Origin: a virus
Lineage: Duplodnaviria; Caudoviricetes
Reading direction: 5' to 3' (one strand)
Length of the DNA stretch: 64,000 bases
Virus record (IMG/VR): IMGVR_UViG_3300025000_000057
The notes under the pieces are model-generated. The model did no database searches. It was not told the origin of the DNA and saw only the letters and a list, made by a program, of their open reading frames with translations. The translations under genes were made by a program, and so were the position numbers. Shown here piece after piece: positions 8,607-20,165 of this stretch; the stretch's first letter is position 1; each line of letters opens with the position of its first letter.

Positions 8607-8810
8607 ATGAGGACATGTCGGAATTGTGGTAATACAAAAACATTTATAGCTGATGCAGTAAGTCGTAGCACTGTAATTGTAAACAGTAATGGAGAGTTTA
8701 TAGACTGGGTAAATACAGGTACCGAATTACCTAAGATTGAGGTTCCATATGCTTGTGGTGAATGTCAAAGTACAGATATTTACGATCCGGACGATCCTGT
8801 TCCGTTCTGA
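8607..8810 (+). CDS. small zinc-ribbon protein
   Basis: CRNC...CGEC; GGGGTG SD. Confidence 0.65.
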   Translation: MRTCRNCGNTKTFIADAVSRSTVIVNSNGEFIDWVNTGTELPKIEVPYACGECQSTDIYDPDDPVPF

Positions 8811-15800: not shown

Positions 15801-18263
15801 GTGAAATGTGTGGATTTAAAAGAAATAACAAAAGATTTAACCGAACATTTACCTAGCGTAAGTGATGAGCAATTTGAAAAAGAATTAATCGAAGCTGGTA
15901 TAGAAGGGTGTCCTAATATTCAGGGACGTACTAATTTGAAGATTGGAGTTATCAATGATACTCACATCCGAGAAACTAACCCTAAATCTCGGAAGGATGA
16001 TTACATTGTAGCCCTTCTAAAGAAGTACATGGAAGTTGGAGAACTTATTCAGACCTATCAAATTGATTTACTTGTACATACAGGTGATATGTTTGACGGC
16101 CCTCGTATTGATAATGAGATCTCCGGCTTATTTGCAGGAATTATGAAAGAGTATCTCTGTCCTATGGTGGTTGTACCAGGTAATCACGATATCTTTGGTT
16201 ACAGTATGCAAAATATCAATAAAACAACACTTGGTTTATTAGCAAAAGCCGGAGTGTTTAATCTATTAACCAGAGCCACTCCTACAACCTGTAAAACTAA
16301 TGATGGACTGGTAGTATCAATTCAGGGACAGGAGTTTACACCTGATGTAGATAAGAATCCGGATAAGTATATCGTAGATATAGATCTCTCAGCACAGTAC
16401 CACGTTCTCTTTGTACATGGTAACATTCTGGATAAACCAGGGCCACCGAATATGGATTATGTATTAGCAGACGATATTCCTGCAAGTAATACTCCATATC
16501 CTGCAATCATATGTGCAGGACATTATCATCCTGGTTTTAAGACAATGCAAAGTAAGAACAATCCGTTTATCATTAACAACGGTAGTATGGGTAGAAACTC
16601 TGCCAGTGTAGATGTACAAACCAGAATACCAGGTATGACTATCCTGGAGTTTGATAAGAATGGCTGGAAAGAAAACTTCGTAGAGTTTAAATCAGCTCAA
16701 CCCGGTATAGATGTATTCGATTTTAACACCAATGTACAAAAGAAAGCTAAGAGTAATTTTCTAAGTAATTTTAGACAAAGTTTAGCTAATACTGCTAATA
16801 TTAAGCCGTATGATGTTATGAAGATCTTAAATGAAAAGGCTAGTAAGGCAGGTTGTTTAACTAAGTGTCTTAAGATGCTAAGTGATGCCGACGCATTACA
16901 TGCTCAGGTAACACAAAAGTTACAGGGATATGTAGATTGTGGTTATACCAAGCGTATTACTCGTATCGAGATCGAGAATTTCATGAGTCACAGTAATACG
17001 GTAATCGATCTTAACCCTGAAACGAATATGTTTGTCGGGCCAAGTAATAATGGCAAATCCGTTATTATAAGGTTAGTTCGCTGGGTATGCTTTGACGATC
17101 CTAAAGGTGCTGACTTTATAAAACTTGGTGAATCTAAAACCCGTGGTAAAATCTACTATGATGATGGTACCTGGATTGAACGTGAGAGAACTAGGTCGGC
17201 TGCCGGTACCTTAAAGGTTTTTGATGGCAAGCAAGTATATGACTTTACTAAGTGGGGGCATCAAATCCCAATTGAAGTACTTAACGTACACCAAATGCCG
17301 GACGTTATCTTAGCTAAAGATAAGCGTATAAACCTTTCAGTTTCCGAGCAACTTGACGCTCCATTCTTATTGTCTGAAAGTCCATCTATCCGGGCAGCTA
17401 TAATTGGTACATTAGCCGGACTTGATGCATTCGACGTAGCTATCAGAGAAAATAGTAAAGGTATTGCCGGTATACAAAAAGGTATCAAGGAAAAAGAAAA
17501 GATAGTAAGTGATTTTATAAATAAACTTGGTACGTTTACCGATCTATCTGATATGGAAACAAAGATCGCTTCGGCTACCGTCGGTATCGATGTTATCGAA
17601 GAACTTACAAATACAGTCCAAGATATAGACCAAGCAATAAAAGACTTTACAGCAATGAATACCAATATAGCTACAAGTGACGCTGAATTAAAACGTATTA
17701 AAGCTATCGATGCAGCTAAACTCTTAGTTCTACTGGATAACGCTAGTGATATAGATGTAGAAGTTGCATGGCTTAACGAAGCTCTTGACAAAAGTCTCAC
17801 CCTGAATAAATATATCCAGGGATATCAAGAAACACAAGCTTCCTTGCCTAATATAACAGGGTTACTCGATCTTATAGACCAAGGATTACCTCTTGAGGAT
17901 GATATAAAAGAGCTTACTGATTTTATATCACAGTCAGAGCATCTACAATCAGAGATGGTTCGGGTACAACAAAGTCTTAATAACATACCAAATACTAATG
18001 GACTCTCTGACTATCTATCTCTGGCCGAGCAGCTGAATCCACAGATCGAAGAGATTGATATATTTCAAAGAGATATATCTACCATCTACACTCATATTAA
18101 CACTACCAAAAGTAATCTCTCAGATACTATAACAGCATCTAAAAGAATAAGAGATACTTATACAGCTTCCCTAAGAGAAGCTAAGGTATGTGGTGAGTGT
18201 TTTAGTATCCTAGACGATGCCCGGATAGCACTAATACTTGATAATGTAACGGGGGTAAGATAA
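15801..18263 (+). CDS. SbcD/Mre11 nuclease fused to the N-terminal half of an SbcC/Rad50 ATPase
   Basis: NDTH, HTGDMFD, VPGNHD, HG, AGHYH; then IEIENFMSH, Walker A GPSNNGKS, coiled coil, CGEC zinc hook near C-terminus. Confidence 0.9.
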   Translation: MKCVDLKEITKDLTEHLPSVSDEQFEKELIEAGIEGCPNIQGRTNLKIGVINDTHIRETNPKSRKDDYIVALLKKYMEVGELIQTYQIDLLVHTGDMFDGPRIDNEISGLFAGIMKEYLCPMVVVPGNHDIFGYSMQNINKTTLGLLAKAGVFNLLTRATPTTCKTNDGLVVSIQGQEFTPDVDKNPDKYIVDIDLSAQYHVLFVHGNILDKPGPPNMDYVLADDIPASNTPYPAIICAGHYHPGFKTMQSKNNPFIINNGSMGRNSASVDVQTRIPGMTILEFDKNGWKENFVEFKSAQPGIDVFDFNTNVQKKAKSNFLSNFRQSLANTANIKPYDVMKILNEKASKAGCLTKCLKMLSDADALHAQVTQKLQGYVDCGYTKRITRIEIENFMSHSNTVIDLNPETNMFVGPSNNGKSVIIRLVRWVCFDDPKGADFIKLGESKTRGKIYYDDGTWIERERTRSAAGTLKVFDGKQVYDFTKWGHQIPIEVLNVHQMPDVILAKDKRINLSVSEQLDAPFLLSESPSIRAAIIGTLAGLDAFDVAIRENSKGIAGIQKGIKEKEKIVSDFINKLGTFTDLSDMETKIASATVGIDVIEELTNTVQDIDQAIKDFTAMNTNIATSDAELKRIKAIDAAKLLVLLDNASDIDVEVAWLNEALDKSLTLNKYIQGYQETQASLPNITGLLDLIDQGLPLEDDIKELTDFISQSEHLQSEMVRVQQSLNNIPNTNGLSDYLSLAEQLNPQIEEIDIFQRDISTIYTHINTTKSNLSDTITASKRIRDTYTASLREAKVCGECFSILDDARIALILDNVTGVR

Positions 18264-18998
18264 ATGGATAATAAAACTAGGCCGGGTGCAGTTAAACAAA
18301 TAGCTCCTCAGGTTAAACCTAGACAGATACAGCGACACGTTCGTTTTATACCTACCGAGGATGGTAATGGTGTAACCATTGAAATTGATGCAGAGAGTTT
18401 ACCATTTAATCTGCGCCGTTACGCCGCTCAGCTGGCTGGTAATTTACGAATGAGGTACCGTGATTCTCGTCTTACTAGGCAGGTAAAACGAGAAATAGAG
18501 CGCGAGGTGTGCCGTTGGATAACGAAATATAAAGATCCTGGCTTCATTAAGTGGGATGGTCAAGATAAGTTTGAACTTATTAAAACCAAGTTCCCAGTAC
18601 ACTTGCAAGATAAACTAAAGAATCTTGCAGACTTAATGAATCTTGTGTTCTATGAGTATCCAGACACCGAAGAAACCAGGCAGATTATGCTTTTGTTTAT
18701 TCAAGAATGGATTGAAACAAACTCTCTGGTATTACCTAGTGAAGTACAGAATATTCATGAAGATATTCTGACAACCATTAGGGATGAGGTTGGTGACAAT
18801 CCTATCGAAACTACAGAGACTCGTGAAAAAGTATCAGCACTTATCATGAACTTGGTAAGAAAGAAAAGGGAGGAGTTACTACATGAGCGAATCATTGAAA
18901 CAGCTAAAAGCGCAGGTACAGGAAATTCAGCTCCAAGAAGTGAGATTGACGGAGAACCTGAACAATCTGCAGAACCAGTATCAGGAACTGATCAATAG
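18264..18998 (+). CDS. hypothetical protein inside split sbcC locus
   Basis: 244-aa ORF abutting upstream stop. Confidence 0.65.
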   Translation: MDNKTRPGAVKQIAPQVKPRQIQRHVRFIPTEDGNGVTIEIDAESLPFNLRRYAAQLAGNLRMRYRDSRLTRQVKREIEREVCRWITKYKDPGFIKWDGQDKFELIKTKFPVHLQDKLKNLADLMNLVFYEYPDTEETRQIMLLFIQEWIETNSLVLPSEVQNIHEDILTTIRDEVGDNPIETTETREKVSALIMNLVRKKREELLHERIIETAKSAGTGNSAPRSEIDGEPEQSAEPVSGTDQ

Positions 18999-19467
18999 AG
19001 TATCGGCTAAGGGTTATAACTATCAAAACCTACAGGCCGAGAGAGATGAACGTATTCAGAAACGAGATCAGCTGAAGCAATATGTATCTGACGTACTGAC
19101 TGGTAAGCAGATAGAGCCTCCAGTGTTTAATACACCGGAACCCGTACAAACACCGGTAGAACAACCTGTGCAGCAAGTAGCTCAACAACTGGTAATGCAA
19201 GAACATGTACCACCGGTAATGCAAGAGTTTTGTGAAAGTGGACAGTCTTTACCCAATATTCCTATAACGGGAGAAGAGTATATGTTGCCAGAGCAACAAC
19301 ACCCAACCTTTGATAGTTTTCTTACACAAGGAGGGTCTCAGGAGAACTCACCTTTACCGGAATCCGTTGCAGGTGTATCGAGTTGGCCACTCCCGAATCT
19401 AACTCCTCCTACTGAAGGTGATTCAACCTTGCAACCTAAAAACTCTGTAATGGATTTTCCATTCTAG
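18883..19467 (+). CDS. coiled-coil protein with Pro/Gln-rich tail ending MDFPF
   Basis: heptad N-terminal about 70 aa; GGAG SD. Confidence 0.65.
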   Translation: MSESLKQLKAQVQEIQLQEVRLTENLNNLQNQYQELINRVSAKGYNYQNLQAERDERIQKRDQLKQYVSDVLTGKQIEPPVFNTPEPVQTPVEQPVQQVAQQLVMQEHVPPVMQEFCESGQSLPNIPITGEEYMLPEQQHPTFDSFLTQGGSQENSPLPESVAGVSSWPLPNLTPPTEGDSTLQPKNSVMDFPF

Positions 19468-19490
19468 AGTGTTAAAGGAGACATACGCTC

Positions 19491-20165
19491 ATGATATCTA
19501 CTATAGATTTAAAAGAGCAGCTTGAACAATTAAAAGCAAGTTACAACAGCCGTCTAGGTGAAAAGAAAGGCATTGAAGAACAGATTGTATCTCTGGATAA
19601 ATCCGTTCTTGAAGATAAGGTCTCCATTGCAGACTTTGAAGCTATAGGTCTGGTACTCCAGGATACTACCGATGAAGCTCGTAAAGTGTATTCTGATAAT
19701 CTAGCCCTTGTCGTAACAAGTGCATTACAACACACCTTTGGGCCGGATTTTAGATTAATCATTGAACATAAAGAATCTCGGGGTAAACCTGAGATACACT
19801 TCTACGTTGAGCATGAGCTGGGTAATAAGATTATCAAAAGTTCGCCTGAAAAGAGTATGGGTGGCGGCGTAGTTGATATCGTAGCATTTGCTCTACAAGT
19901 AGCTGTCAAGAAACTCTGTAAGGAACCGGCCCAAAATGGCTGTATGATTCTTGATGAGCCCGCTAAGATGGTTAGTCAGAACTTCGCTATTAAGTTAGGT
20001 CAATTCATCCAGTTTATTAGTAAGGAATTTGACATACAGATAAACGGTGTTACACATCAGCAATACTTGGCCGACCAAGCGAGTAAATGTTTTGATGTAA
20101 ATATCTATAATGGCAGTAGCGTAGTTAAAGAAAAGATACCTGTAATAGCACCGGTGGGGCCCTAA
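19491..20165 (+). CDS. C-terminal half of SbcC/Rad50 ABC-ATPase
   Basis: short coiled coil, signature SMGGGVVD..AFALQ, Walker B ILDEP, H-switch GVTHQ; no Walker A. Confidence 0.88.
   Translation: MISTIDLKEQLEQLKASYNSRLGEKKGIEEQIVSLDKSVLEDKVSIADFEAIGLVLQDTTDEARKVYSDNLALVVTSALQHTFGPDFRLIIEHKESRGKPEIHFYVEHELGNKIIKSSPEKSMGGGVVDIVAFALQVAVKKLCKEPAQNGCMILDEPAKMVSQNFAIKLGQFIQFISKEFDIQINGVTHQQYLADQASKCFDVNIYNGSSVVKEKIPVIAPVGP

Follow-up and report, generated by a model that had tools for sequence, protein, structure and literature searches.

A Mre11-Rad50-type nuclease-ATPase divided at the zinc hook in a large uncultivated phage and its relatives

The locus and its four open reading frames

Positions 15,801 to 20,165 of a 64,000-nucleotide stretch of tailed phage DNA (IMG/VR record IMGVR_UViG_3300025000_000057; the whole stretch is referred to here as the window) carry four open reading frames (ORFs), which between them hold the nuclease, the two ATPase lobes and the hook of a Mre11-Rad50 (SbcCD) enzyme, and which probably encode a working version of it in pieces. 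The source phage is uncultivated, with a contig of ~220 kb, and Bacillus phage 0305phi8-36 is a distant relative. A first-pass annotation made from the letters alone had described the locus as a re-partitioned SbcCD, in which the nuclease is fused to the N-half of the ATPase and the C-half is carried on a separate gene. Its coordinates hold for all four ORFs (15801, 18264, 18883 and 19491), and the parts are as follows, with the evidence for each in brackets.

15801..18263, plus strand: fusion gene of SbcD/Mre11 and the Rad50/SbcC N-half, stopping soon after the predicted zinc hook (820 amino acids, aa, from GTG 15801)
15936..16847, plus strand: SbcD/Mre11 phosphoesterase domain, aa 46-349 (Pfam Metallophos, five intact metal-binding motifs, family profile)
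16848..16952, plus strand: linker of ~35 residues between the C-terminal helical region of the nuclease and the N-lobe of the ATPase (limits of the hidden Markov model matches, and sequence)
16953..17420, plus strand: Rad50 N-lobe, aa 385-540, with Walker A at 413-420 and the Q-loop at Q517 (AAA_23, AlphaFold2 model, profile)
17421..18188, plus strand: one-way helical arm, aa 541-796, 256 aa (AlphaFold2 secondary structure and its predicted local distance difference test score, pLDDT; Pro/Gly breaks)
18189..18260, plus strand: predicted zinc hook CGEC, aa 797-800, and a 20-residue tail with a short helix, where the chain ends (invariant Cys pair, profile matches to hook crystals)
18264..18998, plus strand: orphan ORF of 244 aa (outside the conserved set, no family match)
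18883..19467, plus strand: H protein, with a helix-turn-helix-like core, aa 1-75 (nucleotides, nt, 18883-19107), and a Q/P-rich tail (nt 19108-19464) (H profile, BLASTP, position)
19491..20165, plus strand: Rad50 C-half of 224 aa, a 66-residue helix (nt 19491-19688) followed by the C-lobe (phrog_15167, alignment, PDB profile matches)

The first gene encodes an entire nuclease followed by half of an ATPase. Pfam places Metallophos at aa 46-244 and AAA_23, the N-terminal domain of Rad50/SbcC, at aa 388-597 of the 820-aa product, and the PHROG families that it matches carry the names 'exonuclease', 'SbcD-like' and 'SbcC-like'. All five Mre11 motifs are intact (D53xH55, G95D96, G127NHD130, H206 and G240HYH243), with four of them invariant in 29 relatives and H55 retained in at least 90%. 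As a single sequence the nuclease domain finds no match in the PDB and the family profile is needed, with which P. furiosus Mre11 comes first (expectation value, E, 5e-14), followed by T. maritima Mre11 and E. coli SbcD. The nuclease and ATPase are joined end to end, with the whole of SbcD including its C-terminal helical region, then ~35 residues, then the first strand of the N-lobe.

The ATPase part of the fusion protein carries the Walker A motif GPSNNGKS at 413-420, the Q-loop glutamine Q517 and the sequence CGEC at 797-800, only 20 residues before the stop, with the Q517 glutamine and the two hook cysteines being the sole invariant positions in a 44-sequence alignment. A model of the N-half resembles the N-lobes of Rad50 and SMC proteins (Foldseek 9a9j_A, E 1e-8; 5f3w_B, Z 11.1, root-mean-square deviation, rmsd, 2.5 Å over 120 residues), its profile finds Rad50 in the PDB at E 2e-17, and the C-terminal 60 positions of that profile match the Rad50 hook crystals 6zff (E 4e-6) and 1l8d (E 2e-5). 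Judged by these matches CGEC is a Rad50-type zinc hook, for which zinc binding is predicted. The first-pass annotation had read Mre11/SbcD motifs, Walker A, a coil of roughly 250 aa and CGEC in this one ORF, and all of these are present, the arm being 256 aa long. The NCBIfam profile 'TrlF family AAA-like ATPase' also matches aa 383-788 through its positions 287-696 of 944 (E 3e-11; 43 bits, where the cut-off is 350), and TrlF may be another family with a domain fused ahead of a Rad50-like ATPase.

The point at which translation begins calls for some caution. A 45-residue N-terminal extension (window 15801-15935) occurs in the window ORF alone, relatives starting at the first strand of the nuclease, and the true start may be TTG 15936 (775 aa, with AGGGA upstream) or GTG 15810 (817 aa); other gene calls give 817 aa for this ORF.

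The rest of the ATPase lies on ORF 19491, where the annotation had placed the signature, Walker B and H-switch behind about 65 aa of coil. A helix of ~66 aa is followed by SMGGG at 122-126, LDEP at 154-157 (Walker B and D-loop) and TH at 188-189 (H-loop), and Walker A is absent from the 224 aa; SMGGG is a variant of the SGG signature, for which the consensus in this family is SRGGG. The C-half profile matches C-lobe fragments of Rad50 in the PDB at E 2e-14 (3aux) to 1e-9, with profile positions 29-213 aligning with 4-178 of 3qkr_B, almost end to end, and the window C-half is 40.6% identical to gp5 of 0305phi8-36. As Walker A and the Q-loop are on the fusion protein and the signature-like motif, Walker B and the H-loop are on the C-half, the two are complementary halves of one ABC ATPase.

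A split shared by phages and bacteria

The division of the ATPase is not peculiar to the window. When the C-half profile was scored against 1.84 billion cluster representatives in a word-based search, stand-alone C-halves passed E<=1e-3 in 3,431 representatives, of which 2,325 also passed E<=1e-10. Lengths run from 167 to 285 aa throughout the best 150, and proteins of more than 435 aa reach only 37-47 bits compared with 120-390 for the short ones; within the limits of this word-based C-half profile search no close unsplit relative was found. Loci were then fetched for comparison, 42 from IMG/VR and 80 from species-representative bacterial genomes, the latter being the best 80 of 337 pattern-selected matches and nearly all from Bacillota. 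In every relative examined the N and C halves are separate genes and SbcD co-occurs with them, adjacent (or fused, as here) in all complete loci. The cut falls at the same place throughout, with CxxC (nearly always CPxC) 4-44 residues from the C-terminus in the N-halves examined, which number more than 100 relatives with some short or truncated N ORFs excluded from the tally; the exceptions are one N ORF without CxxC and two in which it lies further from the end.

Using D for the nuclease, N and C for the ATPase halves and H for the small helical protein, the gene order is D-N-H-C in 59 of the 80 bacterial loci, and many of the phage contigs have N-H-C-D or D-x-N-H-C. In most relatives the nuclease has a gene to itself, as in prophage phBC6A51 and phage vB_BboS-125, which have the same ATPase split. 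The SbcD-N fusion is found only in the window, in 0305phi8-36 and in ten IMG/VR loci (L010, L011, L013, L019-L022, L027, L037 and L040), most of the fused IMG/VR loci being on contigs of 117-218 kb, together with the database proteins P0002-P0005 and P0007. In a quickly searched maximum-likelihood tree that is restricted to the ATPase part and has long branches, 11 fused proteins fall on one side of a branch (Shimodaira-Hasegawa-like approximate likelihood ratio test, SH-aLRT, 92; one change), which fits a fusion that marks a 0305phi8-36-like jumbo lineage and would have a single origin.

The same gene structure and the exact window proteins are present on 9-12 independent contigs (NCBI, JGI, ENA, Logan). 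The split is natural, and is neither an artefact nor a dead gene, because it is common to thousands of proteins, the motifs are intact and identical proteins occur in independent assemblies. The frameshift or assembly error of which the first-pass annotation had warned is thus countered by the conservation of the split and by the independent contigs, and synteny agrees, as the same split is found in 0305phi8-36, phBC6A51, vB_BboS-125 and the IMG/VR and bacterial loci.

The bacterial loci are mostly not prophages, and the split enzyme has a cellular form linked to recA. The order in Melghirimyces, Orenia and Peptoniphilus is cinA-recA-(recX)-[sbcD-N-H-C]-rny-ymdB (Pfam). By BLAST on the 80 bacterial loci RecA is near in 59 and RNase Y in 60, and where the flanks are complete one or other is near in 56 of 59, with both lacking in 3. 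Examples of such housekeeping strings can be seen in L053 (580-8417), L059 (54-9416) and L130 (154-5597).

No published description of a hook-split Rad50 was found, which is weak evidence of absence since most subscription journals lay outside the search. The comparative-genomics paper on 0305phi8-36 has only the label 'DNA repair exonuclease' on a map and does not discuss the split, and a survey of jumbo phages handles SbcC and SbcD as ordinary. The first-pass annotation had allowed that this architecture might prove already characterised and common; common it is, but a paper characterising it did not come to light in the literature covered. The split architecture is a common yet uncharacterised, real variant of the Mre11-Rad50 machine.

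The H protein, the orphan frame and the arm

A third protein accompanies the two halves. The H family has ~75-86 residues (core median 76), is encoded between or beside the halves, and consists of a helix of ~40 residues, a turn of the form G-[VY]-x-P-x-x-L and a helix of ~30. Iterated once, the H profile recovers H genes in the loci first scored as being without one, except for L042 (E 0.12), and in 100 of the 111 loci with N, H and C the H gene overlaps the C gene or is separated from it by no more than 30 nt. Within the window the best match to the profile is ORF 18883, which BLASTP also relates to the H proteins of L032 and L035 (E 6e-5), which has a strong Shine-Dalgarno (SD) sequence 7 nt upstream of its ATG, and whose position matches that of the H genes in all relatives. 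The ORFs between the halves show no similarity by BLASTP to gp6 or gp7 of 0305phi8-36, and H is seen only via the family profile.

Behind its core ORF 18883 has a Q/P-rich tail of 119 aa that ends MDFPF (nt 19108-19464). From its sequence this tail looks like an SSB-type C-terminal tip, and could dock the nuclease complex on a reader of the SSB tail. Other C-termini may be set down alongside it. The SSB of this phage (window 9460-10263, with a Q/P-rich linker) ends TLPF and an upstream ORF of 67 aa (8607-8810) ends DPVPF; H proteins of the fused lineage end EDVPF (L010), NMPF (L013) and ALSF (L011), or in acidic runs (gp7 of 0305phi8-36).

A natural fusion of H to the C-half, 289 aa long, is present in a Symbiobacteriaceae metagenome-assembled genome (L076, 4779-5648), with the H profile matching aa 3-64 (E 7e-11) and the C profile aa 78-287. 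Relatives of this locus have H and C in the same frame, a stop and one codon apart, and the fusion itself may reflect a sequencing error; there is no H-C fusion among the best 150 C-half representatives. The AlphaFold2 model of the fusion (pLDDT 92.8; predicted template modelling score, pTM, 0.71) has helices at 2-47, 51-68 and 74-157, followed by the C-lobe, and its structural matches are listed here with Z and then rmsd / residues.

H-C model, residues 1 to ~130: IpaB 3u0c_B, Z 9.9, 1.9 Å / 100
H-C model, residues 1 to ~130: FliJ 3ajw, Z 9.1, 2.4 Å / 120
H-C model, residues 1 to ~130: P. furiosus Rad50 hook rod 6zff, Z 9.2, 3.6 Å / 114
H-C model, whole: Smc head with coiled coil 5xei, Z 11.5, 5.2 Å / 270

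The matches to IpaB, FliJ and 6zff are antiparallel helical hairpins, and in the match to 5xei the H part occupies the place of the ascending helix. The best available hint, which comes from this model, is that H folds back antiparallel along the C-half helix at the base of the arm, and this is consistent with the equal, constant lengths of the two and with the adjacency of their genes. It had been suggested that ORF 18883 could supply part of the helix returning from the hook. It does stand as a conserved extra subunit, but the model puts it on the C-half helix at the arm base and not along the long arm.

The remaining frame, ORF 18264, follows the TAA stop of the fusion gene without a gap and keeps its reading frame, and its last 116 nt are shared with the H gene. 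Its length as an ORF in AT-rich DNA, its coupling to the stop upstream and the presence of the exact protein on 12 contigs make it probable that the gene is real. It could be argued that this product is structural too, making a complex of four subunits in which it supplies, for example, the return strand of the arm, as it sits between the N-half and H, in frame behind the N-half stop with a G-rich SD, and its 244 residues are close to the length of the arm. This is improbable, given that it has no relative in ~130 related loci, where the gene at this place differs by lineage or is absent, that it has no match in Pfam, PHROGs, NCBIfam or PADLOC, and that its Atlas model is poor with no obvious long coil. 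On such sequence comparisons it is not part of the conserved core machine. The earlier estimate of three to four subunits needs correcting in that ORF 18264, without relatives, is not one of the core subunits, which makes the count three here and four where SbcD is separate.

The extra gene varies from lineage to lineage, being gp6 in 0305phi8-36, BC1853 or an AP2-domain gene elsewhere and nothing in L005-L008, and the space between the N-half and H looks open to mobile or passenger genes. The annotated AP2-domain gene is that of vB_BboS-125 (L003, 2176-2748), and in L016 (2036-5542) the slot holds an ORF of 1,168 aa that by eye starts like a DnaE-type polymerase with a PHP domain.

The arm itself was modelled with AlphaFold2 over aa 385-820 with 44 relatives (mean pLDDT 83, pTM 0.44), giving a Rad50-like N-lobe and, counting aa 385 as 1, helices at 157-193, 198-250, 254-343 (with a dip in confidence at 291-310) and 351-410, then the hook loop at 411-421 and a short helix at 422-433. 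The arm helix is broken every ~48-50 residues, at aa 578-581, 635-637, ~675-694 and 728-734. A similar periodicity is seen in the length of the arm, measured from lobe to CxxC in 96 distinct arms (N-halves among L004-L131), which is quantised in steps of ~47-48 residues.

113 residues: one arm (L076), outside the 96, the shortest seen, on an N-half of 306 aa
160 residues: n=1
202-204 residues: n=4
221 residues: n=1, off the steps
243-262 residues (mode 254): n=27
297-304 residues (mode 301): n=55
347-353 residues: n=8

Across the 96 arms Pro/Gly breaks recur ~66, 110, 157, 205, 260 and 300 residues ahead of the hook. The parts that might pair with the arm are constant against its length (r 0.15), with medians of 76 residues for the H core, 68 for the C-half helix and 17 for the tail after the hook. 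Together these can pair with at most ~160 residues, which leaves a surplus of 45-195 residues of arm in all but the shortest members, so that in most of the family the arm cannot be an intramolecular antiparallel coiled coil over its full length. The single folded-back chain of Rad50 is not found in the window, as the fusion protein ends 20 residues past the hook and the C-half helix has only 66.

Some further readings of H and the arm were tried. H does not look like a free copy of the repeat unit of the N-arm, since H-profile scores on 44 arms are no better than on shuffled arms; and H, the N-tail and the C-helix do not make up a complete return strand, which fits only arms of ~160 residues and fails at 113 (L076), 254 and 301. 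Folding back of the N-arm at its midpoint was assessed through a Pro/Gly proxy over 44 arms that is too noisy to discriminate, and a structure search with the arm of the N-half model superposes it only on single long helices, with very large rmsd.

A three-polypeptide complex and its relation to known systems

It is thought, with a probability of about 80%, that the locus encodes a working Mre11-Rad50 complex for DNA-end processing, of the SbcCD or T4 gp47/gp46 type, made of three polypeptides. The first, DN, would comprise the SbcD nuclease, the Rad50 N-lobe and a one-way arm with the CxxC zinc hook as its last feature, the second, H, would be a small two-helix protein, and the third, C, a 66-residue helix with the Rad50 C-lobe. 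By analogy with engineered two-chain Rad50 heads, the ABC ATPase head would be assembled in trans, with DN giving the N-lobe and C the C-lobe. The covalent link would tether the nuclease, probably aided by the nuclease's own C-terminal helices, and H would pack against the C-half helix in antiparallel fashion at the arm base. One zinc ion held between the terminal CxxC pairs may join two DN chains, and the distal arm modules that have no return strand probably pair between the two arms. T4 gp46/gp47 process DNA ends for recombination-dependent replication, and the likely job here would be ATP-dependent end resection and hairpin opening for replication of that kind. That the first-pass annotation saw a multi-subunit complex of the Mre11-Rad50 (MR) type is borne out by the complementary halves, by their being separate genes in all relatives and by the constant company of SbcD.

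A number of points weigh against this reading. The complex, its stoichiometry and the head assembled in trans are what we infer from its parts. The match of the window H to its family profile (E 9e-6) covers aa 1-54 only, and coiled-coil composition inflates such E-values. The H-C model is of a single chain, from an alignment without H rows, and AlphaFold2 tends to pair adjacent amphipathic helices regardless. At a pTM of 0.44 the arm model gives no reliable three-dimensional arrangement, the bookkeeping of lengths yields no one geometry for all arm lengths, and ORF 18264 is without an assigned role.

There is a small chance that the genes belong to another Rad50-like system, such as a segregation ATPase or an ATPase-nuclease of the Lamassu, Gabija or OLD kind that acts in defence or counter-defence. 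GenBank uses the name 'chromosome segregation ATPase', the N-terminal P-loop has weak matches to AriA, LmuB, GajA and Old beside the partial match to TrlF, and a small helical partner is reminiscent of the kleisin-like subunits of SMC-type systems. However, the matches to defence ATPases span ~45 residues around Walker A or fall far below the cut-offs, that to AriA (E 2e-10) running over a gapped stretch and those to most defence families covering the P-loop region alone, and no effector partner of Lamassu, Gabija, OLD or PARIS systems could be seen in the neighbourhood. For all three domains, hook included, Rad50 and Mre11 are the leading matches in profile and fold, a Mre11-type nuclease is always adjacent or fused, and the neighbours are genes of replication and recombination in the phage and recA-recX or rny in bacteria.

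That the pieces are rejoined into one chain, by read-through, frameshift or protein trans-splicing, is very improbable. It is true that DN, ORF 18264 and the C-half share a reading frame and that H and C are in some Symbiobacteriaceae separated only by a stop and one codon, but each gene has its own SD and start, H of the window is in a different frame and no intein domain was found (Pfam). The gene order also varies, with SbcD between N and C in L009, C before N in L048 and unrelated insertions elsewhere, and this variation rules out a common mechanism of rejoining. A decaying, fragmented SbcC gene or an assembly artefact has nothing but the unusual layout to recommend it and is hardly credible when all catalytic motifs are intact, when the split is shared at 25-40% identity and when identical proteins recur between assemblies.

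The three-polypeptide complex may further have an arm of a new SMC type, a one-way, single-chain rod of ~48-residue modules with a terminal hook and no return strand, two of which would pair and be closed by the terminal zinc site, with the head clamped by a short, distinct hairpin of H and the C-half; besides serving the phage, the machine would be a chromosomal, recA-linked repair system in many Bacillota. This is put forward tentatively, as a proposal that may well fail in one or other of its parts.

In the phage the locus lies among genes for DnaE, SSB, RecA, a UvrD/PcrA helicase, MazG and UDG, and no internal terminator was found among the tightly coupled genes. The interest of the locus is that Rad50/SbcC is the textbook example of a fold-back arm, upon which models of DNA tethering and gating rest, and a family cut at the hook with a stub for a return strand, an extra subunit and arms that vary in steps is a natural experiment on what the arm and hook need. 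The question is testable, as each piece is small, looks soluble and can be expressed on its own, a relative (0305phi8-36) is cultured, and many Bacillota have the cellular version beside recA. As to annotation, MR subunit would be the proper name for both the C-half (now 'chromosome segregation ATPase' or 'ATPase') and H (now 'hypothetical').

Compared with E. coli SbcCD, T4 gp46/gp47 and the Mre11-Rad50 of P. furiosus, the window has the same five-motif phosphoesterase, the same Rad50-type ABC head and the same CxxC hook on a long arm; as in these and other archaeal systems, the nuclease and ATPase genes are adjacent and in a recombination setting. It differs from them in that the ATPase is cut 20 residues past the hook with the descending half of the arm absent, in having the conserved third protein H, in the fusion of the nuclease ahead of the N-lobe, and in that the arm of the family changes in steps of ~48 residues without a matching change in a partner strand.

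Another close counterpart is 0305phi8-36 (EF583821), where gp8 is the fused nuclease and N-half (769 aa), gp7 is H (92 aa), gp6 has 238 aa and gp5 is the C-half (236 aa), annotated as 'DNA repair exo subunit 2' (gp8), 'hypothetical' (gp7) and 'chromosome segregation ATPase' (gp5). The window fusion is 32% identical to gp8 over 88%. The unrelated extra gene comes after H in 0305phi8-36 (gp6) and before H in the window, and the window H has a 119-residue tail.

The two-chain Rad50 constructs used for crystals (1f2t, 1ii8 and 3qkr, chains A and B) likewise consist of N and C fragments with short coiled-coil stubs and an active head. These are engineered and lack the arm and hook, whereas the division in the window is natural and its N piece retains the whole arm with the hook. 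The helices of Mre11 that bind Rad50, and the N-terminal helices of kleisins on SMC necks, are also short helical elements at the base of a coiled coil, and H has a similar placement in the model with no link to either in sequence or fold; unlike them, it has its gene directly ahead of that for the C-half, and the two can be fused.

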